Position numbers and translations under genes: made by a program. The notes beneath the pieces are model-generated. The model was not told where the DNA came from. It saw only the letters and a list, made by a program, of their open reading frames with translations, and searched no databases. Shown one piece after another: positions 45,989 through 62,759 of a stretch of DNA of 64,000 nucleotides; within the stretch, counting starts at the first letter, position 1; each line of letters begins with the position of its first letter. This DNA is from an uncultured Gammaproteobacteria bacterium (GTDB lineage: Bacteria; Patescibacteriota; Microgenomatia; UBA10105; UBA927), in contig CAZNKB010000004.1 in assembly GCA_964573695.1 (NCBI GenBank), forward strand, positions 78,214 through 142,213. Direction: 5' to 3'.

Positions 45989-46347
45989 ATGACAATAATT
46001 TTTCCGTGAAACATGCTCATACCACAATGCATATCGTAAGTTCCTGCTTTGACAGGGGAGAGTGTTATGGTGACGGGTGTATTGAGAGGAAGAAATCTTT
46101 TTATTTTGAAATCGCTAACGAGAATTTCTTCTAGGCAACTATTGGGATCCGTCCGGGTGAGCGTGATTGTGGATTTTTTGTTGGCGGGCACAACAATGGT
46201 GTTTGGTTTGTAGCCACCGTCTACGAGGATATCCCATTTTTCCTTGGCGGAGCCATATCCGGATTCAGCAGATCTGTTTCCGAAAAAAAACCAGTAAATT
46301 CCGCCGATACCCAATATCCCAAGAAGCGTGACAAGAAATTTATCCAT
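45985..46347 (-). CDS. Cupredoxin-like domain protein, membrane anchored
   Basis: 120 aa; N-terminal TM; C-terminal [16 protein letters not shown] motif (Cys/His/Met copper ligands) typical of Cupredoxin_1-like domains; 4-nt overlap with copA. Confidence 0.5.
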
Positions 46348-46624
46348 GTTGTTTCTCCATGACCTTCATGACTTCTGCTATGACTTCCTCGGTGTTGCCT
46401 TTGCGGATTTCTTCGGCGACGCACGTTTCCATGTGGTTTCGTAAGATTTCCTGGTCAGTGCTGCGTAGTGCCGCCTGTACTGCTAATGATTGGTGAATGA
46501 CATCAACACAGTAGTTGCCTTGTTCCATCATTCGGATAACTTTGTCTAAATGACCGCGTGCTATCTTCATGCGGTGAAGGATTTTATTCTGAATTGATTG
46601 ATGTCGCGGTATTCCTTTTGGCAT
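46340..46624 (-). CDS. csoR: CsoR/RcnR family metal-sensing transcriptional repressor
   Basis: 94 aa; KILHRMKIARGHLDKVIRMMEQGNYCVDVIHQSLAVQAAL (conserved Cys/His copper ligands). Confidence 0.8.
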   Translation of the reverse strand: MPKGIPRHQSIQNKILHRMKIARGHLDKVIRMMEQGNYCVDVIHQSLAVQAALRSTDQEILRNHMETCVAEEIRKGNTEEVIAEVMKVMEKQHG

Positions 46625-46665
46625 ATAAATCCTCCTTGACCCCGATAAAGTCGGGGTTGACTTAT

Positions 46666-46682
46666 ATCCCCCCTATGGGGAT
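46666..46682. promoter_or_regulatory. CsoR operator-like GC-rich palindrome within divergent promoter
   Basis: ATCCCCCCTATGGGGAT inverted repeat between TTGACT (-35-like, 46657-46662) and TAGAAT (-10-like, 46682-46687). Confidence 0.5.
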
Positions 46683-46709
46683 AGAATCATCCTATCATGT
46701 TTTTGCGGA

Positions 46710-47750
46710 TTGTCAATTCTTTTGGTACACTTACTTAACTTTATGCCAAATCTTTGGATCATATTTACAACGGGACTGATCGCCGGGGGACTGACCTGTA
46801 TGGCCGTGCAGGGAGGAATACTGACCACTGCACTTACACGAGAGGAAGAGGCGGATCCGAAGGGTTCTCGGGTGGTAGGCGTGACGGCGTTTCTTATGGC
46901 CAAACTCCTTTCTCATGCGATCCTTGGGGCTCTTCTGGGGTGGTTGGGGTCATTCATCGCGCTCTCACCCAGAACTCAGGCAATCGGAATCGGGCTTGTC
47001 TCCCTGTTTATGATCGGAACCGCACTGTCATTTCTCGATATCCACCCTATTTTCCGATACTTCGTCATACAGCCTCCACGAATGCTCACGCGTTATATTC
47101 GCGGAACCGCGAAGGGGGGTAGTTGGTACGCACCGGTACTCATCGGATTGCTTTCTATCTTTATTCCCTGCGGGACGACGCAGGCGATGATGGTGTTGGC
47201 CGCAAGCACGGGGAGTCCTTTATGGGGAATGGCGGTACTGGGAGTTTTCGTTTTGGGAACGGCCCCGCTTTTCTTTCTTTTGGGAATTTCTATTGATGTG
47301 ATCAAAGCAACGCTGAAAGAAAAATTCGGTGTGGTAGCATCTGTACTCGTTATGTCGCTTGCGCTTATTAACCTAAATGCCGCGCTTACGCTCTACGGAT
47401 CACGAGTAAATTTGTGGTCGTTGCCGCGTGCTTTGTTTTGTGCGGTGACATTTTGTACCCCGCTAGAGGGTAATCTGGATGCGACGACGACGCCAACGAT
47501 CACCTTTTGGCTCAATGGATATAAAATTGATAACCCTGTTATTCCTAAAGGGGAATCGATTACTCTAACGCTCACAAACACGGCAGGGCAAGGGTGCGTT
47601 CAGGCGTTTACCATTCCGGCACTCGATATTCAGGAGGTAGTGCCTGTCGGGATAACCAAGACGCTCACCTTTACCGCCCCAGACAGGAGCGGAGAGTTAG
47701 CGTTTAGTTGTAGTATGGGTATGTACGGAGGAAAATTTATTGTGCGTTAA
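46710..47750 (+). CDS. Polytopic membrane protein (TauE/CcdA-like, Cys-containing TMs) fused to C-terminal cupredoxin-like domain
   Basis: 346 aa; TM cysteines (GLTCMAV, IFIPCGTTQ); C-terminal FSCSMGMYGGKFIV paralogous to 45985-46347 product. Confidence 0.45.
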   Translation: MSILLVHLLNFMPNLWIIFTTGLIAGGLTCMAVQGGILTTALTREEEADPKGSRVVGVTAFLMAKLLSHAILGALLGWLGSFIALSPRTQAIGIGLVSLFMIGTALSFLDIHPIFRYFVIQPPRMLTRYIRGTAKGGSWYAPVLIGLLSIFIPCGTTQAMMVLAASTGSPLWGMAVLGVFVLGTAPLFFLLGISIDVIKATLKEKFGVVASVLVMSLALINLNAALTLYGSRVNLWSLPRALFCAVTFCTPLEGNLDATTTPTITFWLNGYKIDNPVIPKGESITLTLTNTAGQGCVQAFTIPALDIQEVVPVGITKTLTFTAPDRSGELAFSCSMGMYGGKFIVR

Positions 47751-47762
47751 CACTATTTTGAT

Positions 47763-47972
47763 ATGAAAACAAAAAAGACATATAAAATAGTAGGCATGCA
47801 TTGTTCAAGTTGTGCCATGCTTATTGAAGGGGAGTTGGAGGACAGGGGTATCACCGGGCGGTGTAGTTATATCAAGCAAGTCGTTGAGGTGGAAGCCGCG
47901 GATACGGGGAAAATCGATGCGGTAGTAAAGGAAGCCGTTGAAGCGGCGGGATATCACGTGAGCGGGACATAA
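47763..47972 (+). CDS. copZ: Heavy-metal-associated (HMA) domain copper chaperone
   Basis: 69 aa; GMHCSSCAMLIEGEL (MxCxxC). Confidence 0.8.
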   Translation: MKTKKTYKIVGMHCSSCAMLIEGELEDRGITGRCSYIKQVVEVEAADTGKIDAVVKEAVEAAGYHVSGT

Positions 47973-51530: not shown

Positions 51531-51622
51531 TTGACAGGCGAGTGAGCGGCTGTTTACTATAAGGTATATCAGCACGCGCTGCCCCAAGCTTGTTGACAAC
51601 CAGACGGAAAGTCCGCTACAGT
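51531..51622 (+). promoter_or_regulatory. Two tandem sigma70-like promoters upstream of the uncharacterised gene array
   Basis: TTGACA(51531-36)-18-TACTAT and TTGACA(51593-98)-18-TACAGT. Confidence 0.35.
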
Positions 51623-51965
51623 GAAGCTTAGTATGAATACAAAACAAGCCAAGTTTGAAGACCGTCTTACCGACATTGTTGTTCAGATAGAGAAGTCCGG
51701 GTGGACTGACGAGGATAAAAACGCGCTGTATGCCAAAATCAGCGAGTATCTCCACAGCGTCGTATTGCCGGTGCTACTTAAGTTTACCCCAGTCGATGAA
51801 TTAAAGGACCTTGCAAATAACCCCGCAAAAGATACCGTTGACGCGTTCGTTGAGGTTATGAAAAAACCATTAAGCGATCCAAAAATGGCTCAAGAGCTTG
51901 ATGCGACGGTCCACAGTGTGCTTGATGATGTCGAAACTGCCTTATCCAAAGGAGGGATAACATGA
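51621..51965 (+). CDS. Small acidic helical protein, paralogue A of a 3-member family (unknown function)
   Basis: 114 aa; shares …(D/E)KxxLYAxISExLxxxxxPVLLKxxPxxEL…NPxK…T… with 52513 and 53495 ORFs; likely true start ATG 51633. Confidence 0.55.
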   Translation: MKLSMNTKQAKFEDRLTDIVVQIEKSGWTDEDKNALYAKISEYLHSVVLPVLLKFTPVDELKDLANNPAKDTVDAFVEVMKKPLSDPKMAQELDATVHSVLDDVETALSKGGIT

Positions 51966-52507
51966 GTGAACAATCCATGGGTGCAGAACTAGGGACACCG
52001 AGAGATCGTGCCATTGCCTATCTGGAACTCCGGCAGCACGGAACATACAAAGGCGGAGCGGAGAAAAACGTCAAGACAGGATTGATTCCCGACAAAGTAC
52101 GTCGTACCGAGCCGCTTGTAGATGCGGTGACTGCCTATGAGCAGGTGATTGACCGCATGGGACAGAAGGGGTTTGTCGGGTCACAGCAAGCATTGGAAAA
52201 TCTTCGTCCGCAGGCCTATGACGCGATGCGCGGTGTGCAATGGGGAGCGAGAGCCGCGGACTTTTTGTTGACCGCAGCTATCTGGTTGGGACCAACGAGA
52301 CGGGTTATTCGAGGATTACCGCTTAAAGCAGCCGCAACGTGGGCCATGATGAGATTCCGTCCTCTTGAATGGGCCGCAGCTACGGCGACAAAGATAGGCG
52401 GATCCGTTGCCACAACGGAAACAGTGGCGCCCGTTGTCAACAAAATTCTGCAAGGCGGAGAACGCGTTCCGAAAACGCCCGCCGTACCTAAACCCATGGC
52501 GGCCTAA
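51962..52507 (+). CDS. hypothetical protein with Ala/Trp-rich hydrophobic segment
   Basis: 181 aa; 4-nt overlap with upstream ORF; ADFLLTAAIWLGPTRRVIRGLPLKAAATWAMM. Confidence 0.45.
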   Translation: MSEQSMGAELGTPRDRAIAYLELRQHGTYKGGAEKNVKTGLIPDKVRRTEPLVDAVTAYEQVIDRMGQKGFVGSQQALENLRPQAYDAMRGVQWGARAADFLLTAAIWLGPTRRVIRGLPLKAAATWAMMRFRPLEWAAATATKIGGSVATTETVAPVVNKILQGGERVPKTPAVPKPMAA

Positions 52508-52512
52508 CTATC

Positions 52513-52821
52513 ATGGAAGAGAAACTTAAAGCGATCCTTGCCCGCATAGAAGCCTCAAACCTCGAAGAGCAGGATAAGGTAAAGCTCTATGCCGTCATCT
52601 CCGAGTCTCTCAAGGCGGCGATTTGGCCTACACTTCTTGCCAAAATGCCGAAAAACGAGCTGGAAATGCTTGTGAAAAACCCCGGGAAAGCAACTGCTGA
52701 ATCATACCTTCATCTGATCGAAGAAGCGACCAAAGACGAAAAGGTGCTGGATGACGTGAATGAAGTGCTTATGAATTTGGTAAATGAAATAGATGCGGCC
52801 CTTACGGAGGAAAAGATATGA
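52513..52821 (+). CDS. Small acidic helical protein, paralogue B
   Basis: 102 aa; MEEKLKAILARIEASNLEEQDKVKLYAVISESL…WPTLLAKMPKNELEMLVKNPGKATAESY. Confidence 0.55.
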   Translation: MEEKLKAILARIEASNLEEQDKVKLYAVISESLKAAIWPTLLAKMPKNELEMLVKNPGKATAESYLHLIEEATKDEKVLDDVNEVLMNLVNEIDAALTEEKI

Positions 52822-53432
52822 CCGAGCAAACAGGAGAATTGGCAGCCCCAGTCGAACGGGAGAGCGGTGTGGTAAAACGGATTGCCGAGAAGGCCGGCAA
52901 GTTTTTGTCGGAAAACTACACATTGAAGGGTGCCAAGGCGCGGGAACTGAGAGCGCTTGATGCGGTGGTAGGGAGCTTTACCCCGGAACAGCAAATGGAG
53001 ATGCGGGCACATTTTGAGGCTAAGGCGGAGAAGAATGCAAAATGGAAAGTGATCCGTAATTGGGTTGCGACTGGTGCTGGTATTGCCCTTGGCGGAGCAG
53101 TAGTAATAGCCGGACCCGACAAAGCTGCTGCGGCAGTCGTGTTGGCTGCAGGAAAAGTAGCTGAATGGTGGACGGTGACAGCCGCTCCGGCGCTTGCAAA
53201 AGCGGCAGCGCCAATAATTGCAGTGGGAGAAGCGGTCAAGACAGGGATACACAAGGCCTGGACTACGGTGTATAACTATGTTGACTATATGTTTGATATC
53301 AAACCGTTTGCGGTTGATATCCCATGGACCCAAATCAAAGACGGGGCGCCGAAGATCCCGCCATTCCCCGATTTACCACCGTTTAATCCGCCAAAGATAG
53401 AGATTCCCTGGCCGAAATTCGGGATTAAATAG
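52818..53432 (+). CDS. hypothetical protein with Gly/Ala-rich hydrophobic hairpin
   Basis: 204 aa; WVATGAGIALGGAVVIAGPDKAAAAVVLAAGKVAEWWTVTAAPALAKAAAPIIAVG; Pro-rich C-terminus. Confidence 0.45.
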   Translation: MTEQTGELAAPVERESGVVKRIAEKAGKFLSENYTLKGAKARELRALDAVVGSFTPEQQMEMRAHFEAKAEKNAKWKVIRNWVATGAGIALGGAVVIAGPDKAAAAVVLAAGKVAEWWTVTAAPALAKAAAPIIAVGEAVKTGIHKAWTTVYNYVDYMFDIKPFAVDIPWTQIKDGAPKIPPFPDLPPFNPPKIEIPWPKFGIK

Positions 53433-53494
53433 GTGAGGGGATATTGACTTGACGGTGTCCTGATGCCATAGTATTAATTAAGAAAAGGAGTCTT

Positions 53495-53818
53495 ATGGAA
53501 GATAAACTGAAAGCAATTGTGACGAGAATCGAACAAAGTAAATTATCCGAAGCAGAAAAGGCAGAGCTTTATACAACTATCTCTGAGGGACTGCAGGTGA
53601 CCGTGTGGCCGGTGTTACTTAAATACATGCCCAAAGAGCAACTTGATTATCTTGCTGCCGATCCTAAGGGGAGAGTGACTGTCGAAAGTTATGCGCAACT
53701 CATTACCGATACGATCAAAGACGGTGTGGCACTCAAGGAAATTGATGACCTGATGAATCAGGTGCTTGATGAGGTCGATAAAGCACTTTCTGAAGAGGGG
53801 ATCGATACAGTAAAATAA
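53495..53818 (+). CDS. Small acidic helical protein, paralogue C
   Basis: 107 aa; MEDKLKAIVTRIEQSKLSEAEKAELYTTISEGLQVTVWPVLLKYMPKEQL…. Confidence 0.55.
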   Translation: MEDKLKAIVTRIEQSKLSEAEKAELYTTISEGLQVTVWPVLLKYMPKEQLDYLAADPKGRVTVESYAQLITDTIKDGVALKEIDDLMNQVLDEVDKALSEEGIDTVK

Positions 53819-53849
53819 ATTAAGTTTTCTTGCCCAAAGAAGAAAGGAT

Positions 53850-54377
53850 ATGACTATGGCAGAAATAGGAATGTCAATGGAACCACCGAAAAAAGGATTT
53901 GTCGAAGGGCTTCGTCGTGCATTCACGGTTGGGGGAGCGAAAGAGAAGTGGTATCAGGATCACAAAGATCTGGTGCTTAAATACACAGATGTGCATAATG
54001 GCCTGAACGACGAACAGCGTGCACAGGTGATGCAGCAGATAGAAAACGACGCGACTAAGTCGGCAAAGATCGCCGTTGGGAAGCATGTGGGTGCAGCCGT
54101 TCTCACAACTGCAGTTCTGGGATTTGGTGGAGGACTTGTGGGGAGTGAGCGGTTCCGAAATTTTGTAGCAAAAGGCAAATTGTTTAATTGGGAGTTTGGA
54201 AAAGGACTTGCAACACTAGGGGAGAAAGGGGCTGGTCATTTGGGTGATGCAAAAAAATGGCTGGACAAGGTAATTGATGGGCCAAAGCAGTGGGTGTATA
54301 AAAAAATACTTCCTGATTCTGCGCTTACCGGCGCGTTTGATGCAGGGGCTACTGTGGCTAGCGCAGTAAAGAAATAA
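53850..54377 (+). CDS. hypothetical protein with Gly-rich hydrophobic segment
   Basis: 175 aa; VGAAVLTTAVLGFGGGLVG. Confidence 0.45.
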   Translation: MTMAEIGMSMEPPKKGFVEGLRRAFTVGGAKEKWYQDHKDLVLKYTDVHNGLNDEQRAQVMQQIENDATKSAKIAVGKHVGAAVLTTAVLGFGGGLVGSERFRNFVAKGKLFNWEFGKGLATLGEKGAGHLGDAKKWLDKVIDGPKQWVYKKILPDSALTGAFDAGATVASAVKK

Positions 54378-54473
54378 AGCAAACGTTATCCCTCTTTTAG
54401 CGATCTCATATGGCTAGGGCATAGGTATTTTTGTGTTGCAATTCACGTTTGTATATGTTCTACTAATAGTAGA

Positions 54474-55235
54474 ATGTCTATGTCAGAAATACCCAAGGGT
54501 AATCCTCAATTTGTGGGCCAAGCAGATGCGAGTAAATTGCAGGCCGAAGCTCCCATAAAAGCCGAATTTACTATTTCCCCGGAACAGCAAAAGGTAGCCG
54601 ACGTTATGAAAGAGAGTGGTGATAAGCTTGCTGACTCCGTCATTGAGGCGCGGGCACGGGCAGCCGGTAAACTTCAGTCGTTGCGTGGTAAAGAACTCGT
54701 TGATGCGGGATTGAAGCAAATGGGAAGAGGAGCCTGGGAAACATTCAAGTCGGAACTCAAATGGGGGATACCAATGTACATATTAGGCACGGTTGGTGGA
54801 GCGACAGCAGGATATGCAGGTGTAAGAGGATTACGCACAGAAGAAGGGCGCCAGTCTCTAGCAAATAGTTTATCCAGTCTCTCGGATGAGCCAGTACCGC
54901 TTATGTCTGCGGAGGAAGCACGTTCTGCACAGCAATTCGCGACAGGTCTTGGTGCAACCATAGGGGGAACTATTGGTAAGGATGTAGGTGTGTTGTTGGG
55001 ATACGAAACCGCTGGGCTCAAATATAACAAGAAAATTGCGGTCAAGGAAAACTTACCGTCCACGAAATTTGTTGACTGGGTAGTTGGTAATGCTGCAAAT
55101 GTCGGGATACGGACGCTTCTTAAAGGGCGTTTCGGCTTTGTAGGTCAGCTTGTGGTAAATGAGGTTACAAATCCGATAACAATCGGGGGACTCCGCAATG
55201 TGGCGACCGGCATGTGGCAGATGAGAAAGGGATAA
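54474..55235 (+). CDS. hypothetical protein with Gly-rich hydrophobic segments
   Basis: 253 aa; IPMYILGTVGGATAGYAGV and GLGATIGGTIGKDVGVLLGYETAG. Confidence 0.45.
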   Translation: MSMSEIPKGNPQFVGQADASKLQAEAPIKAEFTISPEQQKVADVMKESGDKLADSVIEARARAAGKLQSLRGKELVDAGLKQMGRGAWETFKSELKWGIPMYILGTVGGATAGYAGVRGLRTEEGRQSLANSLSSLSDEPVPLMSAEEARSAQQFATGLGATIGGTIGKDVGVLLGYETAGLKYNKKIAVKENLPSTKFVDWVVGNAANVGIRTLLKGRFGFVGQLVVNEVTNPITIGGLRNVATGMWQMRKG

Positions 55236-55236
55236 T

Positions 55237-55521
55237 ATGCAGGCACTGAAACACAAAATACAGCATACAACTCTATTTTCTGATGACGATAAGATCGCTA
55301 TCCTTGCTGCAGTCGATACGTACACTGCGGAAGATGTAAAGGCGCTGGAGGGCATCATCGATGAGTTTGATGAGAAGCACCAGGAGGCTATTTCCGAGTA
55401 CAAAAAATCCGTGTACGGAGTACTCGATACGATCGTTGCAAAAGCGAACCCGTCAGACAAAAAACGCTTCCAAAATGCTGCAGCTGATGTCCGGAGCGGT
55501 TTAGACGCACTTCTACAATAA
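55237..55521 (+). CDS. small acidic helical protein (possibly distant relative of the 3-member family)
   Basis: 94 aa; 4-nt overlap (ATGA-type) with upstream ORF. Confidence 0.4.
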   Translation: MQALKHKIQHTTLFSDDDKIAILAAVDTYTAEDVKALEGIIDEFDEKHQEAISEYKKSVYGVLDTIVAKANPSDKKRFQNAAADVRSGLDALLQ

Positions 55522-55560: not shown

Positions 55561-57726
55561 ATGACCGAGTACCCTCCGAAGCCCAAGCGTACTATAGAGG
55601 CGCCCACAAAGGAAATTCCCCGCGTAGACCCGAGCCCGCTTCAAGAATCCGCAAAGTTAGTAGGGGCTATAGATGCGAAAGATAAGCAGGGAATCGAGCA
55701 GCACTCAAGCGCATTGGTGGATGAAGTAAGAAAGGATTTTGCCCGTCAGAACGTACCACTTACTCCAAGCGAAACATCATCTCTGGGAAAAAAAGTGAAA
55801 GACTCTTTGAATAACGCCGGAAAGCGGACATCTGAAATGGTGTTTTCTAAAGAGATGCAGAAGGACTTGGCAGAGTATAGGAGTATCGTAACAGATATAG
55901 AGAAAACGTATAAATTTTCCTCAATAGCCCCTGAATTCTATAAGGCGGCAGATAAAATACGTACAAACACAGTGTTGGAAACATTAAGTATTTTTGGTAT
56001 TCAGCACGCATCTAACCCGGGACATGTCGAGCGTGCAGCGATAGAGGTGGCCAGATTTAGTGAAGCAAAGGGCGTAGGGGCAAAGCTCAAACACGCCATG
56101 TCTATCGGAAGGGAAGCACTGCCGTATGTCTACATACTTGGGCTTATACCGCCGCTCATTAACAGTAAGAACATCAGTAAACAATTTGAAGAAAGCACCA
56201 TGAAATTGCGATCAGCTATTAACACCCGGGTAGCACAGTCCGTTTTTATGAGGGATTTTGAGTTTATCCATGACAAGCCAGCCTCAGAAATCATGAATAT
56301 CGTCGATAAAGGCAAACAGGGTACCGTTGATCTTATGAGACTCACGTACAAGCAAATGTTGCCAAAGATTGCAGCTCTTGGTGCAATTACGACTACGGAA
56401 TTTCTTATTGCTCCTCCCGCGGGTATCTTGGGACTTATTCGGATACCGTTCTTGGCTAAACACGGGGAACAAACTGCCAGAAAAATTCTTTCTGAGCGCG
56501 CAGAGAATTTAAAGAGGAAGGATTTGATAGATGCTCGTGTGATGTCGTCGCTTCAGAGTCTCGAGGTGGTTCGGACGACAGATAGCATGGTGAATGCCAT
56601 GGAAGAGCTGCAAAGTAATATGTCCAAAAGCGACGAAGTGGATATTGCGGCGGATTCCTCAAGAAGTGAACGCGACATAAAGGAATCCTACTATGGTTTG
56701 GGGTATACCTATGGCATACCCATTGTAGCCGCCGGGTGGGAAGCGTTGATGAATTTAAATGCACTGAAAGGAAAAGATACGTCGTTTGATGCCGGCCAAG
56801 CGTCGCTCAATGTTATGCTCGCAGGAACCAGTACGTTAGCTTTGGAGGGTATTAACGGTGCGATGATGGAAGAGCTTGTACATGAATACACGGATAAAGT
56901 GCAGCCCGCACTTCAGGATATCCGTCGCATGAATGAGCTGTTGGGGCCGTATGATCAGGTCGATACGCCGGAGGGCCCACGGGAACAGGCGCGGATGCCG
57001 GCCGAAGCGTTGGGTAACTTTGATATTTCCATAAAAAATTTGAATTTCAAAAATATTTTACATAACGTGTCCATGGATATACCCCAAGGGTCGTTTGTGA
57101 CTATCAAGGGGCAGTCGGGAATAGGGAAGACGACCTTTTTACGTCATATGCTTGGGTTGTTTGGTGCAGAAGAGGGCAAGGTGTCATACGGCGGAACGGA
57201 TCTCGGGAGTATCAAAAAGTACGGAGAACACTCGATTTATTCTCAGCTTGCGTATGCCAATCAGAACCCTCAATATTTCGAAAACATGAGCCTTAGGGAA
57301 AACCTATTGCTTTGGACCAAAAAGCAGGTTGACACGGAAAAATTAACAACGGTACTACACGATCTCCACCTGGATCATATCGCAGACCGTATGGACAGCA
57401 ATGTGAAGCATTTTTCCGGTGGGGAACTCCGCAGAATCGGGATTGCCCGGGCGCTCCTTAAAGATCCGAAGGTGCTCTTCCTTGACGAGCCAACCGCAAA
57501 TTTAGACGAAGCTTCGGCAAAACAGGTGCTCGATATCATTAAACAGATGCGAAAGACGAGACCGGATATGACTGTGGTTGCCGTGACCCATGATCCGAAT
57601 TTCGAAGCGATCGCGGAAAAGATCGTTGATTTTGCCGAGGTGAATAAGCCTAACGATACGAAAGCCGAGTCACTCGGGAACCGGCAGGTGTTTTATGCGT
57701 CGAGTGCTTCTCCCTCGAAGAATTAG
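55561..57726 (+). CDS. ABC-type ATPase fused to ~480-aa N-terminal exporter-TMD-like but weakly hydrophobic domain; paralogue 1 of 3
   Basis: 721 aa; Walker A GQSGIGKTT, signature FSGGELRRIGIARALL, Walker B VLFLDEPTANLDE, H-loop AVTHD; N-domain motifs FMRDFEFIHDKPASEIMNIVDKGK and QPALQDIRRMNELLGPYD. Confidence 0.7.
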   Translation: MTEYPPKPKRTIEAPTKEIPRVDPSPLQESAKLVGAIDAKDKQGIEQHSSALVDEVRKDFARQNVPLTPSETSSLGKKVKDSLNNAGKRTSEMVFSKEMQKDLAEYRSIVTDIEKTYKFSSIAPEFYKAADKIRTNTVLETLSIFGIQHASNPGHVERAAIEVARFSEAKGVGAKLKHAMSIGREALPYVYILGLIPPLINSKNISKQFEESTMKLRSAINTRVAQSVFMRDFEFIHDKPASEIMNIVDKGKQGTVDLMRLTYKQMLPKIAALGAITTTEFLIAPPAGILGLIRIPFLAKHGEQTARKILSERAENLKRKDLIDARVMSSLQSLEVVRTTDSMVNAMEELQSNMSKSDEVDIAADSSRSERDIKESYYGLGYTYGIPIVAAGWEALMNLNALKGKDTSFDAGQASLNVMLAGTSTLALEGINGAMMEELVHEYTDKVQPALQDIRRMNELLGPYDQVDTPEGPREQARMPAEALGNFDISIKNLNFKNILHNVSMDIPQGSFVTIKGQSGIGKTTFLRHMLGLFGAEEGKVSYGGTDLGSIKKYGEHSIYSQLAYANQNPQYFENMSLRENLLLWTKKQVDTEKLTTVLHDLHLDHIADRMDSNVKHFSGGELRRIGIARALLKDPKVLFLDEPTANLDEASAKQVLDIIKQMRKTRPDMTVVAVTHDPNFEAIAEKIVDFAEVNKPNDTKAESLGNRQVFYASSASPSKN

Positions 57727-57750: not shown

Positions 57751-59682
57751 ATGGTTAACGTAGAGCGTCAAAAAGCGCCAATTTCTTTTGCTCCAGAGCT
57801 TTCTACAAGAGGATCGGATGAAAAACTTCCTGCAATATCCCTCAAGGAATATCAGGATACGTTTTTGTCCCTCTACACGCTCTATGGATTAGATAAACAT
57901 GCCGCAAAACTCGGATTGCTAGAAGGGACCATGATGACGCGTTCCGTTATGGGACAGCTCATGGGGCCATTTATTAACAAGCAGTTCCGCACTATATTCG
58001 TCGGGTCGTCACCTACAGGTGAGTTGAGCGAGGGTTTAGCGCGGCCAAATGATAAACAAGCGTTCCTTGCCGCTGCAAAAAAACTAGCATTCATTGTAGG
58101 TGGCGCTATGGCCGGGAATTTGTCGGTAAAGTTATTGGACGGGGTGGCCAGGAAAGCATACGAGGAAGAGTCGTTGTTTTTCCGAAAAGCGATAAATGAC
58201 CGTATCGCGCAGTCCATATTCATGCGTGACCTTGAGTTCGTGCAGAATAAGACTCCCGCAGAGATACTCAACATCATAGATAAAGGGAAGCGGGGGATAA
58301 TGACTGTCATTGATGAGACTATTACGGAAGTCGTACCTCACTTGACGGCAATCGTGGCCGCAAGTGCCGCCGGATTTACGGTGGACAAGAAAGTGGGAGG
58401 GTTGGGGCTCCTCCGTCTGCCGTTTCTGTATGCCACGAATAAGAAGGTGATAGAGCAGATGCTTGTGGACAGAAAGAAAGAGCTGGCGCAAAAGGACGCG
58501 ATAGACGCGCGTGTGATGTCATCGCTTCAGAGCGTAGAGTTGGTGAAGTCCTCCGATACTATGGAGCATGCAATCGGCGAATTGGGCAACACGATGCATG
58601 AACAGGATGCCATGATTATCAAATCCAAGCAAAAACGCGTTGCCAGAAGTCAGCAGGAGGCGTACCTTGATACATTGTTTGAAGATATATTGCCTATGGC
58701 GCTCGGGTACGCGGAATATAATGACTTGGTACAATCCGACCATAACCCTTTCGCTTCCGCGACCGTAGCCCTTCAGCACTACAGAACAATAGCGGGTGAA
58801 CAGCGCAGCATAGGCTGGCATGCATCCGCGTTAATGTCATCTCTCTCAGAGAGGATCCAGCCGGCGATTCAAGATATCAAAAGAATGGATGAGTTGCTTG
58901 GTCCGTATGATATGCTGGATAAGCCGGACGGGTTGTTGGAACAAGCAAGAAATCCTGTTTCCCAACTCCGTAACTTTGATATTCAGGTGCGGAATTTACA
59001 ATACAAAAATATACTCCACAACGTATCCCTTCATATACCTGAGGGGTCGTTCGTGACCATTCGAGGGCCTTCGGGTATCGGAAAAACAACACTTCTTCGT
59101 CATATGTTGGGATTGTTTGGGGCGGCGCATGGGGTCGTAACTTACGGAGATCAAGATTTGGGGAGTATAAAAAAATACGGTGAGCATTCTATCTATTCCA
59201 AGTTAGCATATGCGAATCAGGCGCCGTTGTATTTTGAAAATATGTCACTTCGGGATAACCTTCAGTTGTGGACGACGAATCACGTGTCCGACGAAACTTT
59301 ATTCCAGGTGTTGCACGATTTGAAACTCGATCATATCGCAGGTCGACTTGATAGCAAGGTAAAGCATTTTTCCGGTGGGGAACTCCGGAGAATTGGAATT
59401 GCCCGGGCGCTCCTCAAGAATCCGCAGGTGCTTTTTTTGGATGAGCCGACCGCAAATTTAGATGAAGGATCATTACAGCAGGTGTTGCAGATCATAAAAG
59501 ACATGCGTAAAAACAGGCCGGATATGACGGTTATTGCGATAACCCATGATCCGCATTTTGAAGCGATCGCGGAAAAGATTGTGGATTTTGCCGAGGTGAA
59601 TAAGCCAAACGACATGAGCGCGGAGACACTCGGGAATCGGAGCGTATTTTATGGGCCACCGCCCACAGGAAAGAATACATAG
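57751..59682 (+). CDS. ABC-type ATPase fusion protein, paralogue 2
   Basis: 643 aa; GPSGIGKTT, FSGGELRRIGIARALL, VLFLDEPTANLDE; N-domain FMRDLEFVQNKTPAEILNIIDKGK, DARVMSSLQSVELVKSSD, QPAIQDIKRMDELLGPYD. Confidence 0.7.
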   Translation: MVNVERQKAPISFAPELSTRGSDEKLPAISLKEYQDTFLSLYTLYGLDKHAAKLGLLEGTMMTRSVMGQLMGPFINKQFRTIFVGSSPTGELSEGLARPNDKQAFLAAAKKLAFIVGGAMAGNLSVKLLDGVARKAYEEESLFFRKAINDRIAQSIFMRDLEFVQNKTPAEILNIIDKGKRGIMTVIDETITEVVPHLTAIVAASAAGFTVDKKVGGLGLLRLPFLYATNKKVIEQMLVDRKKELAQKDAIDARVMSSLQSVELVKSSDTMEHAIGELGNTMHEQDAMIIKSKQKRVARSQQEAYLDTLFEDILPMALGYAEYNDLVQSDHNPFASATVALQHYRTIAGEQRSIGWHASALMSSLSERIQPAIQDIKRMDELLGPYDMLDKPDGLLEQARNPVSQLRNFDIQVRNLQYKNILHNVSLHIPEGSFVTIRGPSGIGKTTLLRHMLGLFGAAHGVVTYGDQDLGSIKKYGEHSIYSKLAYANQAPLYFENMSLRDNLQLWTTNHVSDETLFQVLHDLKLDHIAGRLDSKVKHFSGGELRRIGIARALLKNPQVLFLDEPTANLDEGSLQQVLQIIKDMRKNRPDMTVIAITHDPHFEAIAEKIVDFAEVNKPNDMSAETLGNRSVFYGPPPTGKNT

Positions 59683-59692
59683 CGCGTATTGA

Positions 59693-60502
59693 GTGGTATA
59701 CTATAGGTATATGAGCGAGAAACCACCAATGGGCGATATGCGCCCCAAACCAAAAGATATTCTCTTGCCGCCTGATAAGGCCAAAGAGATAAGTGACATT
59801 ATCCCCAAACCGGAGAATCAATTCCACTATAAAATTACCGGGGAATGGCAGCAGAATCGAGAGGTCTATCGGGTCATGGAGGGTAATAAAGTGATCAGCG
59901 ACTACTCATTCCCGGAAAAAAGTAACATGAGTAAGGTGCAGTTTGCCACCCGCAAGACGTATTCCAAAGAAGTGAATTTATTGGGAGCTTGGACGGATCA
60001 GCCCGTGCAATTTGACCGCAAAACCGGAACGTGGAAAAAGCTCAATATCCTTGAGCGCGTGAAGCAGACGTTTTCCAAAGAAGTGAATATCCCGGCGCAA
60101 GTGGTCATGGAAGTGGCTGGTGGTAAAGAGGTGCCGATCCTTCACACGCTTGAGCAGAAGCGCCCGGTAGGAGAGACGGTTGTCGAGGCTAAAGTAAATA
60201 CACTTTCCGAGGCGCAGGTTGACTTGGGTCTTAAGTATAAGCACGTGGATCACAAGATTTCAGAGCTTGAAGAGACTAATCGGGTGCTCAAAACTGAAGC
60301 AGCGACAAGTGCTGCCTTGATCGCGTCACTTCGCCAGCAAGTCGTTATCGCTAACCGAAAAGTTTCCGAATTATCGGCACAACTTCGTGTGGCGCAAATG
60401 AAGGCGCAGGATGCGGCTAATCAGGCAAACCCACATCATGAAGGGCCAATCTACTCCAAGCCGGACCCTGCGGATGTTGTCGAGGGTGAAGTCATAGGAT
60501 AA
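59693..60502 (+). CDS. hypothetical protein with internal short repeat and C-terminal coiled coil
   Basis: 269 aa; repeated (Y/F)SKEVN(L/I) motif; heptad-rich C-terminus ELEETNRVLKTEAATSAALIASLRQQVVIANRKVSELSAQLRVAQMKAQ. Confidence 0.4.
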   Translation: MVYYRYMSEKPPMGDMRPKPKDILLPPDKAKEISDIIPKPENQFHYKITGEWQQNREVYRVMEGNKVISDYSFPEKSNMSKVQFATRKTYSKEVNLLGAWTDQPVQFDRKTGTWKKLNILERVKQTFSKEVNIPAQVVMEVAGGKEVPILHTLEQKRPVGETVVEAKVNTLSEAQVDLGLKYKHVDHKISELEETNRVLKTEAATSAALIASLRQQVVIANRKVSELSAQLRVAQMKAQDAANQANPHHEGPIYSKPDPADVVEGEVIG

Positions 60503-60521: not shown

Positions 60522-62759
60522 ATGACGGCTGAACGACCGCTCAAACCACCCGTTCCGAAGGAGCCACACGTTACAACAGACGTGAGCTCTATAGTTACCC
60601 CAAAGGCAGTTGAGAGTACCACACCAGTTATAGAGCGTGTCGCAGAGGGTAAGCCGCCCGAATCCAAAGATTTGACCGCTATGGTAGAACAGGTTGCCAA
60701 GGACTTGCGTGAGCAGGGCATACCGGTTTCCTCGGATGATATACGCGCTGTCCAAAAGTTAGTAGAGCGGGGGTCATACCCGGCATCTTCTTCGGAGTCC
60801 CCAAAACCAGGACAAAAAAAGCCTGTTGAAACAGGACCGCTACCGGAAATCGATCTCAATGAGTATAAAACGGTAGTAGACGATTTGGTCCGGAACTACG
60901 GCGTAGATAAGCAGGCGTGGGGCAAGATCAGCCATATCATCGGCATTACCACACTGGTCGGGGATTTCCTGGGAGGCATGCAGCGGAAAATGTTTGCTAC
61001 GAAAGAGGGCCGGAAATATGTTTATCGCCGGTTCGGTGCAATCGGGCATGAATTGGGGCTCAAGAAATTCACGCCGAAAGAATTTTTCCAGAGTTTGCCG
61101 GTTATGAAAAAAGAAAAAGCGGCAAAAATGGGCAAGTGGTTACTGGAAAGTTCATGGCCGTTCCTCGCCAGTCCCGTGTATTGGTTGTTAGAGCGACAGG
61201 CAGGGAAAATTGCGGGGAAGATGTTTATGGCTGAGCGCACCAATCTGCAAGAACAGGTGAACAATCGGATAGCGGATTCGCTATTTATGCGGAATTTCGA
61301 ATTCCTCAATAACACGCCGTCGGGAGAAATGTTGGAGATTATTAATCGCGGTAAAGATGCCACTCTGGATCTCATGAGTGCGGTGCATGAGGAGCTTATC
61401 CCGCTCAAATACGCGACGGCGGGATCAATCGGGAAGCAGTGGCTGATTAATCCGGTAGATGCCGGAGCAGCGTTGTTCAAAAAAATGATGCTGGAAACCC
61501 GCGTGAAGCCAAATGCGCAACGTATACAAAAGCAGAATGATGAGGCCCTCAAACACTGGGATACCGTCAATACCAAGCTCCTGACGACTTTACAGGGTTT
61601 AGAAACGGTACGGACAACAGGTAATGCAGAAGCCGGATCGGATGTCCTCTATCAGGCGTTGGCGGATAGGGATTTCGTGGAATCGGGCGGCATGCGGGAG
61701 AAGCGTCAGCAGGATCGGACGATGAATAAGCTATTTGATCTTTTGGACATAAGTGTGCCGTTGACGACCGAGGGGTTGAAGTTGTGGCAAGAGATCAGGG
61801 GGGGAGTGAGCGAAACAGGGAAGCCGTATATGGCTGACGATATGTTTAATAGTTTGGCTGACGCGTATTTTCGGGTAACCGGTTCCAAGGGGGAGCAGCA
61901 GGATTTGCGTCAGATGACACTTCAGAAAACACATTTATATGTGAATCGTATCATCCCTGATATTCAGGATATCAAGCGCATGGAAGATCTACTGGGTCCG
62001 TACGATCTTCTTGATCATCCGCTTGGACTTCGGGAGACAGCCAGAAAGCCGGTGTCGGATATCAGCAGGTTTGACATCAAGGTGGAAAATTTGCGGTTTA
62101 AACATATCCTTCATGGGGTAAATTTGGATATCCCCCAGGGATCGTTCGTCACGATTAAGGGTCCGTCAGGAATAGGGAAGAGTACGCTATTTCGGCATCT
62201 TGTGGGGCTCTACCCGGGAGATTCCGGGTCGGTAAAATATGGTGATGTCGATATCGACGGCATCAAAAAATACGGTGAGCAGTCCATATTCACCAAAATC
62301 GCGTATGCCAACCAAAATCCCCAGTACTTTGAGGATATGACGCTCCGGGAAAACCTCCTCTTGTGGACGTCAAAAGATATTCCCAATGAGCGCATCGAGT
62401 CGGTGTTAAAGGATTTGAAATTGGATGCTATCGTTGATCGGCTGGATACGAAAACCAAACATTTTTCCGGAGGCGAAATGCGCCGCATCGGCATCGCCCG
62501 GGCGTTACTCAAGGATCCCAAGGTGCTGTATCTTGATGAGCCTACGGCAAACCTGGATGCTGCCTCCACGCTGCAGGTGATGAAGATTATTCAGGAACTC
62601 CGTAAATCACGACCGGATATGACCGTGGTTGCCATTACCCATGACCCGGTATTCGAGCGGATTGCTGAACACGTGGTAGATTTTGCCGATATCAACAAAA
62701 AATCCGAATCTGTCGCTCTCGGTGACGGCCAGGTATTAGAAGCGATCGCGAAGCCCTAA
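60522..62759 (+). CDS. ABC-type ATPase fusion protein, paralogue 3
   Basis: 745 aa; GPSGIGKST, FSGGEMRRIGIARALL, VLYLDEPTANLDA; N-domain FMRNFEFLNNTPSGEMLEIINRGK, QGLETVRTTGNA, IPDIQDIKRMEDLLGPYD. Confidence 0.7.
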   Translation: MTAERPLKPPVPKEPHVTTDVSSIVTPKAVESTTPVIERVAEGKPPESKDLTAMVEQVAKDLREQGIPVSSDDIRAVQKLVERGSYPASSSESPKPGQKKPVETGPLPEIDLNEYKTVVDDLVRNYGVDKQAWGKISHIIGITTLVGDFLGGMQRKMFATKEGRKYVYRRFGAIGHELGLKKFTPKEFFQSLPVMKKEKAAKMGKWLLESSWPFLASPVYWLLERQAGKIAGKMFMAERTNLQEQVNNRIADSLFMRNFEFLNNTPSGEMLEIINRGKDATLDLMSAVHEELIPLKYATAGSIGKQWLINPVDAGAALFKKMMLETRVKPNAQRIQKQNDEALKHWDTVNTKLLTTLQGLETVRTTGNAEAGSDVLYQALADRDFVESGGMREKRQQDRTMNKLFDLLDISVPLTTEGLKLWQEIRGGVSETGKPYMADDMFNSLADAYFRVTGSKGEQQDLRQMTLQKTHLYVNRIIPDIQDIKRMEDLLGPYDLLDHPLGLRETARKPVSDISRFDIKVENLRFKHILHGVNLDIPQGSFVTIKGPSGIGKSTLFRHLVGLYPGDSGSVKYGDVDIDGIKKYGEQSIFTKIAYANQNPQYFEDMTLRENLLLWTSKDIPNERIESVLKDLKLDAIVDRLDTKTKHFSGGEMRRIGIARALLKDPKVLYLDEPTANLDAASTLQVMKIIQELRKSRPDMTVVAITHDPVFERIAEHVVDFADINKKSESVALGDGQVLEAIAKP

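Follow-up and report, generated by a model that had tools for sequence, protein, structure and literature searches.

A paired gene array at the front of a lineage-specific operon

In the 64,000-nucleotide stretch of DNA analyzed here (the window), three genes for small acidic proteins (A1 to A3) are each followed directly by a gene for a basic, Gly/Ala-rich protein (B1 to B3), and these pairs open a lineage-specific operon of which the region is the front half (about 12 kb, A1 to Y343 and beyond; Table 1). In arrangement it comes closest to an export system made up of a chaperone and its client. All open reading frames named in an earlier note on this DNA lie where that note had placed them, and beyond the ATPase domains no part of the operon matches a described family. 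The two promoter matches ahead of A1 mark a possible operon start, for which the evidence is positional since promoter-like sites in the region are no commoner than in shuffled sequences. Between A3 and ABC1, where the intergenic gaps are 1 to 96 nt, no terminator-like site separates the genes on the + strand, which we count in favor of the chaperone-and-client reading.

Table 1. Features of the array and of the genes that follow it, in window positions
Feature	Positions	Strand	Description
Two sigma-70-like promoter matches	51531-51622	+	Within the 110-nt gap that separates A1 from the glutamate dehydrogenase gene; TTGACA-18-TACTAT (51531-51560) and TTGACA-18-TACAGT (51593-51622), both 10/12
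A1	51621-51965	+	Small acidic helical protein, A family; pI 4.8; BLASTP E 3.6e-20 to A3
B1	51962-52507	+	181-aa basic G/A-rich partner of A1; pI 10.1, G+A 0.24; gap to A1 -4 nt, start overlapping the A1 stop (ATGA)
A2	52513-52821	+	Small acidic helical protein, A family; BLASTP E 3.3e-30 to A3
B2	52818-53432	+	204-aa basic G/A-rich partner of A2; gap to A2 -4 nt (4-nt overlap)
A3	53495-53818	+	Small acidic helical protein; most conserved A paralog
B3	53850-54377	+	175-aa basic G/A-rich partner of A3; gap to A3 +31 nt
B4	54474-55235	+	253-aa basic protein, separate family, paired with A4
A4	55237-55521	+	94-aa acidic helical protein, separate family (a4); starts 1 nt after the end of B4
ABC1	55561-57726	+	721 aa; C-terminal ABCB-like nucleotide-binding domain with all catalytic motifs
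ABC2	57751-59682	+	643 aa; 56% identical to ABC1
X269	59693-60502	+	269 aa, between ABC2 and ABC3; conserved in relatives
ABC3	60522-62759	+	745 aa; 38% identical to ABC1 and ABC2
Y343	62918-63949	+	343-aa basic G/A-rich orphan; next gene lies past the end of the window

The acidic and basic proteins each form a family

A1, A2, and A3, which the earlier note had taken for clear paralogs of about 105 residues, are 30% to 46% identical to one another, and their similarity stays significant after composition correction (BLASTP E 9.9e-17 to 3.3e-30); they are true paralogs and not an artifact of shared composition. The A1 reading frame starts with GTG at 51621, with an alternative ATG at 51633, and the family profile aligns to A1 from residue 12. 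With pI values of 4.4 to 4.8 and no hydrophobic segment above a Kyte-Doolittle value of 1.25, the A proteins belong to an orphan family that is small, numbering 89 clusters in a set of 1.84 billion representatives. The AlphaFold2 model built with A2 as query has five helices at a pLDDT of 93.5 and found no fold match among solved and viral structures, nor any match to a known chaperone fold. Searches of Pfam, NCBIfam, PADLOC, PHROGs, and PDB sequences returned nothing for A or B, in keeping with the earlier remark that WXG, prepilin, and toxin motifs are absent.

The proteins encoded after A1 to A3 are 181, 204, and 175 residues long, as the range of 175 to 204 given previously implied. They had also been called unrelated in sequence, and this did not hold. 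Profile-to-profile comparison joins the B2 and B3 groups (hhalign 94.8%, E 5e-8), and an iterated profile seeded with B3 picks up 43 of 52 dereplicated partners, B1 among them, with 0 matches in 1040 shuffled and 52 reversed control sequences. When one group was left out at a time, the B2/B3 group was found at E 1e-9 and 5 of 8 members of the B1 group were detected, the best of them at E 2e-6, a figure for the group and not the score of the window's own B1. Judged by these profiles, B1 to B3 are one fast-evolving family of remote homologs, of which B1 is the most divergent member in the window. All three are basic (pI 9.3 to 10.1) with 24% to 25% Gly+Ala, and no recognizable secretion signal was seen on B. 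A Gly/Ala-rich hydrophobic hairpin had been proposed for each. What the family shares is a G/A-rich hydrophobic peak at a conserved position near residue 84 (median Kyte-Doolittle 19-mer 1.57; at least 1.4 in 31 of 43 B proteins), but two arms are seen only in B2, where GPDK divides a stretch at residues 82 to 118 upstream of a Pro-rich C-terminal tail; B3 looks like a single hydrophobic helix at about 77 to 98, and B1 is barely hydrophobic (peak 0.94). GxxxG motifs are enriched in B (z = 4.6); the B1-3 family shows no enrichment of the strict GxxxGxxxG zipper (z = -0.9).

The fourth pair, described earlier as the same module in inverted order, is real and is kept in at least 6 other loci, with 22 a4-family reading frames in related loci, but it has no detectable homology to the other three. 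A4 has no BLAST match to A1-3 (hhalign probability 1%) and has nothing beyond a short N-terminal motif in common with A, and B4 compares with B at an hhalign probability of 6%. B4 bears a canonical glycine zipper, G160-x3-G-x3-G-x3-G-x3-G176, which B1-3 do not.

Pairing is conserved while B3 diverges at its C-terminus

A search for the family in related genomes found the partner conserved. Among 77 A-family reading frames, from 44 sequence sources, that have another reading frame downstream, 64 stand directly ahead of a same-strand gene for a basic G/A-rich protein, defined by a pI of at least 8.5 and at least 17% G/A. Spacing in these 64 pairs runs from -23 to +134 nt with a median of 5 nt, and 26 have the 4-nt overlap; median pI is 4.6 for A versus 9.7 for B. 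The pairing persists even in family members of about 25% identity (loci L014 and L017), all 8 B1-type proteins sit behind A1-type genes, and a natural fusion of an A domain with a B-like domain (P0042) occurs on contigs from two samples. Because B1 to B3 form one family, as A1 to A3 do, the A-B pair was duplicated as a unit. Adjacency, translational coupling, opposite charge, co-duplication, the preserved matching of A and B types, and the fusion all fit a cognate A:B pair.

Both proteins are under purifying selection (dN/dS 0.02 to 0.17 in close comparisons, where dS is saturated). In module 3, the best sampled, A3 has a dN of 0.05 to 0.13 versus 0.24 to 0.98 for B3, and in close relatives A3 is 90% to 94% identical versus 54% to 70% for B3. 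This divergence is concentrated in the C-terminal third: the N-terminal 100 or so residues of B3 stay conserved, and the last 70 or so are a variable cassette. One relative, P0107, is 100% identical to B3 over residues 1-98 and 32% identical over 101-175 without a frameshift, so that B3 C-termini are mosaic, with outright cassette replacement on an identical N-terminus. A slowly evolving A3 beside a B3 that diverges at its C-terminus is the pattern expected if A recognizes a conserved N-terminal handle on variable clients.

The ABC proteins and their link to the array

The carrier is an uncultivated groundwater bacterium of Candidatus Gottesmanbacteria, within the CPR. In core Gottesmanbacteria, the array always follows a glutamate dehydrogenase gene and precedes one to three ABCB-like ATPases, and it lies directly upstream of and co-oriented with 1 to 3 ABC genes in 18 of 23 distinct long related loci (at least 7 kb). 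Distant A-family loci (L015, L044, L045, and the P0040 contig) have A with basic partners and no ABC gene in the available sequence. The nucleotide-binding domains score best against exporter families (CydDC, bacteriocin, and type I secretion ABC) and against ABCB structures. The N-terminal 480 or so residues of ABC1 are divergent and poorly hydrophobic and resemble the membrane domain of an ABC exporter; in ABC2, residues 145-267 match Pfam ABC_membrane weakly (E 6.5e-4), the 19.9 bits falling short of the 28-bit cut-off, and the N-terminal domain of ABC3 has no 19-mer above 1.1 on the Kyte-Doolittle scale. All 22 distinct ABC homologs have 0 or 1 segments of at least 1.4 in a 450- to 530-aa N-terminal domain, compared with 8 such segments in genuine membrane proteins of the window. 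With so few clearly hydrophobic segments, it is doubtful whether these proteins make up a membrane channel at all. They were found to contain neither a C39 peptidase nor any other domain for substrate recognition, and X269 gave no domain above threshold, its sub-threshold Pfam and NCBIfam matches being to coiled-coil-type families only.

Resemblance to known systems

The LXG toxins of T7SSb have the targeting factors Lap1 and Lap2 (PMC9600955, PMC10801868), and some carry a glycine-zipper, membrane-damaging C-terminus (PMC12955049). The likeness to our array lies in small (about 100 to 130 aa), acidic, all-helical proteins encoded immediately upstream of a larger protein, in the conserved helical N-terminal region and variable C-terminus of the latter, and in several variant modules per locus. 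However, there is no LXG, WXG100, DUF3130, or DUF3958 match here, and A is a five-helix protein without a WxG motif rather than a two-helix hairpin. B is only 150 to 350 aa long without a recognizable toxin domain, and the operon's ATPases are ABC-type, with no FtsK/SpoIIIE (EssC) ATPase seen in the operon.

Other comparisons capture different parts of the layout. Chaperones of type III secretion and flagellar export are small acidic cytosolic proteins encoded beside, and specific for, a basic client, which has an N-terminal binding region and, in translocators, also a hydrophobic hairpin to be kept soluble. The small acidic A beside the basic B may be likened to these, but no injectisome or flagellar export genes occur here, A lacks a CesT, SycD, or FliS family or fold match, and in this CPR bacterium the ABC proteins are the only motor candidates. 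Class II bacteriocins use peptidase-containing ABC transporters (PCAT) and four-helix-bundle immunity proteins. Here too, ABCB-like half-transporter genes stand beside small helical proteins of about 100 aa and GxxxG-containing hydrophobic peptides, and the nucleotide-binding domain scores against NCBIfam models of bacteriocin exporters; unlike those systems, there is no C39 peptidase domain and no convincing double-glycine leader, B is 3 to 5 times longer than a bacteriocin precursor, and no immunity-protein structure matches the A model. The contact-dependent glycine-zipper bacteriocins (Cdz), for which a type I ABC system serves as exporter (PMC5380434), likewise combine Gly-rich hydrophobic small proteins, in several related copies, with an ABC exporter in one operon. 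CdzC and CdzD, however, are much smaller and true glycine zippers, Cdz immunity comes from a membrane protein whose gene follows those of the toxins, and our operon has no membrane-fusion protein and a non-hydrophobic ABC membrane domain.

Alternative explanations

The earlier note had likened the pairing to chaperone/substrate or immunity/effector arrangements. If the ABC proteins exported B to attack competitors or host cells, B being a membrane-damaging toxin with an exchangeable C-terminal warhead and A its immunity or neutralizing partner in the producer, then the mosaic B3 C-termini would be those of a polymorphic toxin, and the G/A-rich, GxxxG-enriched segments of B, the zipper of B4, the tandem variants in each genome, the bacteriocin-exporter-like nucleotide-binding domains, and the Cdz precedent would all find a place. 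Immunity genes normally come after the toxin and co-vary with the warhead, though, and in this array the small gene precedes its partner and A3 hardly changes even where B3 has exchanged its C-terminus; against membrane-acting bacteriocins, immunity usually comes from a membrane protein, and A is soluble. Nor is there a double-glycine leader with a C39 peptidase, and the fixed chromosomal position, universal presence in the clade, and GC content like that of the surroundings are unlike mobile toxin islands. We consider this unlikely, and favor a chaperone or targeting role over immunity because A is soluble, lies upstream of B, and in module 3 is the more conserved of a pair whose B varies at its C-terminus. 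The resemblance to type II toxin-antitoxin arrays, with a small acidic antitoxin upstream of and overlapping a larger basic toxin, extends to gene order, the 4-nt overlap, and the charge contrast, but seems highly improbable as an explanation: there is no toxin-antitoxin or defense family match in Pfam, NCBIfam, or PADLOC and no DNA-binding antitoxin fold match for the A model, the modules, neither scattered nor mobile, are syntenic and vertically conserved inside a long operon, and known type II toxins do not resemble B with its 150 to 350 aa and hydrophobic core segment.

Two further possibilities concern the ABC proteins. B might reside in the membrane or envelope, for instance as a factor for curvature, division, or attachment, with A as its soluble partner, the ABC genes being linked by lineage-specific gene order only. 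The distant members that keep the pair and not the ABC neighborhood would fit, as would the housekeeping setting of the locus (thioredoxin, thioredoxin reductase, and glutamate dehydrogenase). Yet the tight, operon-like spacing runs into the ABC genes (39 nt from A4 to ABC1), gene order is kept across genomes where B has diverged to 20% to 30% identity, and large-basic/small pairs also flank the ABC genes on their far side, where, in relatives, a small a4-like protein and additional large/small pairs come after the Y343 homolog; we regard this as quite unlikely. Alternatively, B, B4, and Y343 could be small membrane-anchoring subunits that complete ABC proteins whose membrane domain is depleted of hydrophobicity, with A and a4 as assembly factors or regulators. 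The scarcity of hydrophobic segments in all ABC homologs, the weak ABC_membrane match in 3 of 9, the confinement of the operon's clearly hydrophobic helices to B-type proteins, and the strict co-orientation and synteny in the core clade speak for such a composite machine. We find it very unlikely, since the number of A-B modules per locus (1 to 5) does not track that of ABC genes (1 to 3), C-termini swapped between close relatives would be unusual in a core subunit, distant pairs lack ABC genes nearby, and the N-terminal homology to exporter membrane domains stays below curated thresholds.

A putative chaperone and its client

The chaperone idea is consistent with the adjacency, charge, co-duplication, and fusion, and A folds confidently alone whereas B3 does not (low-confidence, all-helix model, pLDDT 54.7), which fits a client needing a partner or a membrane. 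For the ABC part, we count the upstream position of the array in most long loci and the exporter-like nucleotide-binding domains. Counted against the chaperone reading are the similar rates of A and B in close relatives for modules 1 and 2, the ABC link that is not universal, the missing secretion signal on B, the missing C39 or substrate-recognition domain and barely hydrophobic N-terminal domains of the ABC proteins, and the lack of a match between the A model and known chaperone folds. We therefore put it forward tentatively, as a possibility we prefer to the others: A would serve the conserved N-terminus of B as its putative cognate chaperone or targeting factor in the cytosol, and B would be a client handled by the ABC proteins. 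If so, the soluble, acidic, five-helix A would bind the conserved helical N-terminal 100 or so residues of the B encoded directly after it and, alternatively or additionally, may shield the G/A-rich hydrophobic segment. B itself would be a membrane-active, membrane-anchored, or surface protein whose exchangeable C-terminal 70 or so residues probably point outward or toward a partner cell, and the catalytically complete ABCB-like proteins may power the export, insertion, or assembly of B and of B4/Y343-type proteins.

A conserved operon of orphan families

The repeated two-gene modules are real and appear to belong to a conserved operon, specific to the lineage and composed of orphan families, whose layout is suggestive of a chaperone/client/ABC logic. 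The interval consists of 8 co-oriented ORFs on the + strand: three small acidic helical proteins (A1-A3), each directly followed by a basic, Gly/Ala-rich protein (B1-B3), and a pair in inverted order, B4 and A4. Five further + strand genes lie 3' of A4, coding for three ABCB-like ATPases (ABC1-ABC3) and two orphan proteins, X269 and Y343. A1/B1 and A2/B2 each overlap by 4 nt (ATGA), B4 and A4 are spaced by 1 nt, the remaining gaps as far as ABC3 measure 5-96 nt, and 158 nt separate ABC3 from Y343. Two promoter-like sites are found in the gap 3' of the upstream glutamate dehydrogenase gene, and a search from A3 through ABC1 returned no + strand terminator-like sites between genes. We infer that the whole region from A1 to Y343 is one operon.

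Coordinates of the operon genes (window positions) and of large/small gene pairs on the far side of the ABC genes in related loci
Feature	Position	Strand	Type
A1	51621-51965	+	ORF
B1	51962-52507	+	ORF
A2	52513-52821	+	ORF
B2	52818-53432	+	ORF
A3	53495-53818	+	ORF
B3	53850-54377	+	ORF
B4	54474-55235	+	ORF
A4	55237-55521	+	ORF
ABC1	55561-57726	+	ORF
ABC2	57751-59682	+	ORF
X269	59693-60502	+	ORF
ABC3	60522-62759	+	ORF
Y343	62918-63949	+	ORF
Far-side large/small pairs	L001 16369-20079; L012 13564-17375; L018, L019, L020, L037		

The dN/dS ratios of the A and B genes in close relatives are 0.02-0.17, with synonymous sites saturated. By this measure both are under purifying selection, and on that ground they are genuine genes and not chance ORFs. 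Nearly every long related locus has the same gene order: thioredoxin, thioredoxin reductase, an FNR-like protein and glutamate dehydrogenase, then 1-5 A-B modules, an optional B4-a4 pair (a4 being the small-protein family of A4), 1-3 ABC genes often accompanied by X269, and finally Y343-type pairs. The operon is present in every Gottesmanbacteria-type locus recovered in this analysis, and the GC content of the interval is like that of its flanks; the locus is chromosomal, has been conserved vertically and is no island. That the repeated genes are DNA-level repeats or part of a mobile element was considered and ruled out, since the only matches are of 16-41 nt, no RNA family is present and the GC content is like the surroundings.

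X269 and Y343 gave nothing above noise in Pfam, NCBIfam, PADLOC or PHROGs, and no account of the cluster turned up in the literature searched. Judged by these comparisons, the operon outside the ATPase domains consists entirely of families that are unannotated in any library searched.

Two other features of the window can be recorded here. A copper-handling cluster on both strands (43748-47972), coding for a CopA-like P-type ATPase, a cupredoxin-domain protein, a CsoR-like repressor, a DsbD_2/cupredoxin fusion and an HMA metallochaperone, lies directly upstream of the thioredoxin/glutamate dehydrogenase genes, a synteny kept in relatives. Farther away, an ATP-dependent DNA ligase with DNA_ligase_A_N/M/C domains (30193-31920) is of the archaeal/eukaryotic type, not the usual bacterial NAD-dependent LigA.

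The small acidic proteins

A1, A2 and A3 are true paralogues, as the earlier note had proposed, and their similarity is not compositional only: with composition-corrected BLASTP the E values are 3.6e-20 (A1/A3), 9.9e-17 (A1/A2) and 3.3e-30 (A2/A3), in full-length alignments with 30-46% pairwise identity. Their pI values are 4.4-4.8. A profile of A1-A3 and close hits, searched against 1.84 billion representative proteins, collected 89 clusters at E <= 1e-3, 72 of them at E <= 1e-10. Nearly all members are 100-113 aa long, none has a Pfam domain, and those with a source name are called 'hypothetical protein'. The protein sources name Candidatus Gottesmanbacteria or Patescibacteria as taxa, and so do most contig titles in a genome scan. 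A single Stutzerimonas match in that scan (L013, 39% over 63 residues) is taken as spurious, since the profile finds no A-family ORF there. The records of three MAGs with a Gottesmanbacteria-type locus (L005, L008, L010) carry the label 'uncultured Gammaproteobacteria'; an error of taxonomic labelling or of binning is the probable cause. By these assignments the window itself derives from a CPR bacterium of the same lineage.

An AlphaFold2 model of A2 from an 86-sequence alignment is confident (pLDDT 93.5, pTM 0.76) and has five helices, at residues 2-14, 19-42, 47-55, 62-72 and 76-99. Searches with this model by Foldseek returned nothing at E <= 1e-3 against either the PDB (best E 0.77, TM <= 0.37) or the viral models of BFVD. 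The A sequence profile had no match in the PDB (best E 0.053), A1-A3 gave nothing above noise in Pfam, NCBIfam, PADLOC or PHROGs, and a Pfam scan of the small proteins of the operon had no match at E <= 1. The best-conserved positions are L5, S15, K22 (98%), Y26, P39 and L97. A 464-aa protein from an ENA metagenome (P0097) carries four tandem copies of a unit of about 35 residues that corresponds to the first two A helices ('LSFLRxLIxRIKNSxMNDxDKAKLYQRIRNYL'), behind an N-terminus with what looks by eye like a hydrophobic, signal-peptide-like stretch; these two helices may constitute an independent repeat module.

The basic partners

The proteins encoded directly downstream have pI values of 9.3-10.1 and contain 24-25% Gly+Ala. 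BLASTP among B1-B4 finds no similarity to one another, and the partners had initially been described as unrelated in sequence, a description that does not survive profile comparison. Alignments of B3 and B2 orthologs match in hhalign at 94.8% (E 5e-8, 84 columns), these two groups being already linked through intermediates by BLAST single linkage, and an iterated profile seeded with B3 collects 43 of the 52 dereplicated A-following proteins, B1 among them. The final profile matched none of 1040 shuffled and none of 52 reversed B sequences. When each BLAST-defined group was removed from the profile and then searched for, the B2/B3 group was recovered with a best E of 1e-9 and the B1 group with one of 2e-6, 5 of its 8 members being detected. 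On this profile evidence B1-B3 are one family, in which B1 is the least secure member because its direct profile comparison with B3 is weak (E 0.007, probability 5%).

The shared architecture begins with M-[S/T/A]-E, found in nearly all members (e.g., MTEQ and MSEQ; at 51962, 52818 and 53850 in the window and in related loci), and continues with a helical stretch of some 75 residues carrying T-x-x-G-A-K and (T/N)-x-(E/D)-Q motifs, a Gly/Ala-rich hydrophobic peak at about residue 84 and a variable region, often ending in an amphipathic helix (VAxxVNKIL-like) and a Pro-rich tail. A recognition signal could reside at either of the two ends. The MTEQ start resembles what we take to be the N-terminus of ESAT-6. 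The hydrophobic peak is conserved and modest, with a median 19-mer Kyte-Doolittle value of 1.57 and 31 of 43 members reaching 1.4; that of B1 is only 0.94. What had been read as a Gly/Ala-rich hydrophobic hairpin in each partner thus holds as a peak, but two arms are evident only in B2. Single GxxxG motifs are enriched in the family (z = 4.6), and GxxxGxxxG is not (5 observed, 7.7 expected, z = -0.9).

The AlphaFold2 model of B3 is all-helical and of low confidence (pLDDT 54.7, pTM 0.34), with pLDDT of 72-79 only at residues ~30-80. The family alignment matched 39 clusters among 5.8 billion proteins, none with a recorded Pfam domain; its profile had no match in the PDB (best E 0.13), and B1-B3 themselves had none above noise in Pfam, NCBIfam, PADLOC or PHROGs. 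By these searches B is an orphan family to the same degree as A.

The pair as a conserved unit

Conservation of the partners was surveyed in 44 sequence sources (the window and 43 loci) with 81 A-family ORFs. A basic, Gly/Ala-rich ORF follows in 64 of the 77 cases in which there is a downstream ORF, so the pairing seen in the window is upheld in related loci. The gap has a median of 5 nt (range -23 to +134), with a 4-nt overlap in 26 cases. Cognate types remain paired, in that all 8 B1-type proteins follow A1-type genes. Arrays of the form A-x-A-x are kept even in very distant A members with ~25% identity (L014, and L017 with three repeats). In P0042, found on contigs from two samples (L015 1714-2385, L016 1413-2084), a natural fusion joins an A domain with a B-like one, whose homology to the neighbouring B is clear; tandem A-A fusions also occur (P0015, L026 8381-9022, L027 910-1635).

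The two partners of module 3 evolve at unequal rates. In close relatives A3 is 90-94% identical (dN 0.05-0.08) and B3 54-70% (dN 0.24-0.42), an asymmetry that is absent from modules 1 and 2. The divergence of B3 is mainly C-terminal: P0107 is 100% identical to the B3 of the window at residues 1-98 and 32% identical at 101-175, and at least three tail types exist (window 54150-54377; P0105, P0107, P0113). A frameshift was ruled out as the source, since the other two frames of 54150-54480 contain no alternative tail. The pattern suggests that the C-terminal ~70 residues of B3 are exchanged as cassettes by recombination.

Distant A members also occur in L044 (9032-15438) and L045 (5024-6089), beside basic partners (Gly/Ala-rich in 2 of 3 cases) in the opposite order and with no ABC gene nearby. 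In L044 a TraG/VirD4-like ATPase gene lies on the opposite strand, ~350 nt downstream, and the partner in L045 has an extended, glycine-zipper-rich C-terminus.

The inverted pair and pairs beyond the ABC genes

B4 and A4 had been counted as a fourth pair of the series. As a pair they are conserved: related loci contain 22 a4-like genes, and an adjacent B4-a4 arrangement recurs in at least 6 of these loci. Homology to the A-B modules was not detected: A4 has no BLAST similarity to A1-A3 and is rejected as a fourth A paralogue (hhalign probability 1%), B4 is not supported as a B-family member (hhalign probability 6%), and the only element common to A4 and A is an N-terminal motif, I-x-x-S/T-x-L-(S)-D/E-x-D/E-K. 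Neither B4 nor A4 matched anything above noise in Pfam, NCBIfam, PADLOC or PHROGs. B4 contains a glycine zipper of 5 glycines at residues 160-176 that is kept in its orthologues. Short DNA repeats with 90% identity, D1 and D3 (52978-52998/54574-54594, 21 nt; 53924-53943/54788-54807, 20 nt), tie B2/B3 to B4 at the 'TPEQQ'/'SPEQQ' and 'TVGGA' codons; they may be a remnant of distant homology between B4 and B, or a coincidence.

More pairs of a large basic protein followed by a small a4-like one are carried by relatives 3' of the ABC genes, in the combinations Y343-type then a4, 303 then 108, and 361 then a4. The large protein is basic and Gly/Ala-rich in the Y343 type; the small one matches the A4 profile weakly (E 5e-4 to 9e-3) and occupies the same syntenic position in 5 loci. 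Ten orphan proteins of these far-side pairs had no match in a Pfam scan. The window itself stops short of this part of the locus.

ABC proteins with hydrophilic N-terminal domains

ABC1-ABC3 match ABC_tran in Pfam with E values of 1e-28 to 3e-31. In NCBIfam the nucleotide-binding domain scores best against CydD/CydC and against exporters for bacteriocins or type I secretion; in the PDB its best matches are ABCB1, ABCB4 and ABCB11. A pattern search located Walker A, the FSGGE signature, the Walker B D-E and the H-loop in ABC1 and ABC2, and GPSGIGKS, FSGGE, VLYLDE and AITHD are seen by eye in the translation of ABC3. From these matches the nucleotide-binding domains are of the exporter type with complete catalytic motifs.

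What appears to us the most surprising element lies here, outside the interval that first drew attention: the 'membrane' domain of these proteins is predicted to be hydrophilic. The N-terminal domains are 450-530 aa long, and the sole family matched by more than one of them is ABC_membrane, to which ABC2 scores 19.9 bits, under the curated cut-off of 28, and which 3 of 9 homologue domains match weakly (best E 2.8e-4, below the curated cut-off); a profile search of the PDB gave ABCB6 at E 0.25. Segments with Kyte-Doolittle values >= 1.4 number 0-1 in these domains of all 22 distinct homologues; two other proteins of the window, one CopA-like and one DsbD-like, have 8 each. Loss of hydrophobicity from an exporter scaffold may account for the domain.

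Comparison with known systems

The A-B layout works most like that of the type III chaperone/translocator pairs and of the small helical Lap targeting factors that accompany LXG toxins in T7SSb (PMC9600955, PMC10801868), and in composition it is also like the ABC-exported glycine-zipper bacteriocins (PMC5380434). From the motif, family and fold comparisons of the operon proteins that follow, the operon is a member of none of these systems. WXG100 or Lap (DUF3130/DUF3958) membership would call for a helix-turn-helix hairpin with a WxG turn; the A model has five helices and no PDB match (Foldseek, E <= 1e-3); as had been noted from the sequence, a WxG motif is lacking from the A consensus, and A has no Pfam match at E <= 1. 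No LXG domain was found in B1-B4 by Pfam. EssC/EccC FtsK-SpoIIIE ATPases and Ess parts were sought among the operon proteins from A1 to Y343, and the only ATPases found are of the ABC_tran type. Neither a family nor a fold match connects A with CesT/SycE, SycD (TPR) or FliS/FlgN chaperones, and injectisome or flagellar export genes are absent from the operon. Pfam shows no C39 peptidase on ABC1-ABC3, only ABC_tran and weak ABC_membrane; judged by eye, the N-termini of the B proteins do not conform to the LSxxELxxIxGG spacing of a double-glycine leader; and Cdz-like tandem GxxxG repeats in the hydrophobic segment are not enriched in the B family, this feature belonging only to B4, which is of a different family.

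Possible roles of the A-B modules

Our preferred reading, held tentatively and at somewhat less than even confidence, is that A would be a dedicated chaperone or targeting factor handling B as its client, that B would be a membrane-active or envelope protein, and that the co-operonic ABC proteins would be the obvious candidates for the motor. We favor it because the pairs are conserved, translationally coupled, opposite in charge and co-duplicated, because a fusion of A with B exists, because A is predicted to fold stably while B is not confidently modeled alone, and because B combines a conserved N-terminal handle with an exchangeable C-terminus. The mosaic C-termini of B speak for an effector/immunity arrangement, which the earlier note had offered beside chaperone/substrate pairing; the gene order, the solubility of A and the conservation of A while the B tail changes all argue against it, and we regard it as unlikely. 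If the distant loci that lack ABC neighbours are taken as the guide, B could instead be a membrane protein with A as its regulator, both independent of the ABC proteins, a reading we consider distinctly unlikely.

That a composite ABC machine has the B-type proteins as its membrane subunits, a proposal to be set beside the hydrophilic N-terminal domains of ABC1-ABC3, seems to us improbable. Toxin-antitoxin-like modules are the least credible reading and would be a considerable surprise: Pfam, NCBIfam and PADLOC contain no type II toxin or antitoxin match to A or B, in agreement with the lack of a toxin motif remarked on at the outset, and the A2 model matches no DNA-binding antitoxin fold. A broader version of the chaperone and client proposal would extend it to an undescribed, CPR-specific protein-handling machine, in which ABCB-derived ATPases with hydrophilic domains would work with separately encoded small Gly/Ala-rich membrane subunits or clients (B, B4, Y343 types), each escorted by an orphan-fold chaperone (A or a4); this we put forward as a long shot.

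Attachment to host cells is the presumed way of life of CPR bacteria, and to our knowledge almost nothing is known of the proteins that are inserted into or cross their envelope. Should the modules turn out to be just lineage-specific membrane proteins with soluble partners, they would still define 2 or 3 new protein families and provide a clear case of a gene pair duplicated as one unit. If the chaperone/client/ABC reading is true, an ABC exporter scaffold would have been put to a new use, and with A as cognate chaperones of diversifying, membrane-active clients handled by atypical ABC proteins the locus would become a specific candidate for the apparatus by which this lineage interacts with its hosts or competes. 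A CPR-specific machine of the broader kind, if real, would amount to an ABC-driven system of a new class, by which episymbiotic, ultra-small bacteria secrete or insert surface or effector proteins that can be diversified.
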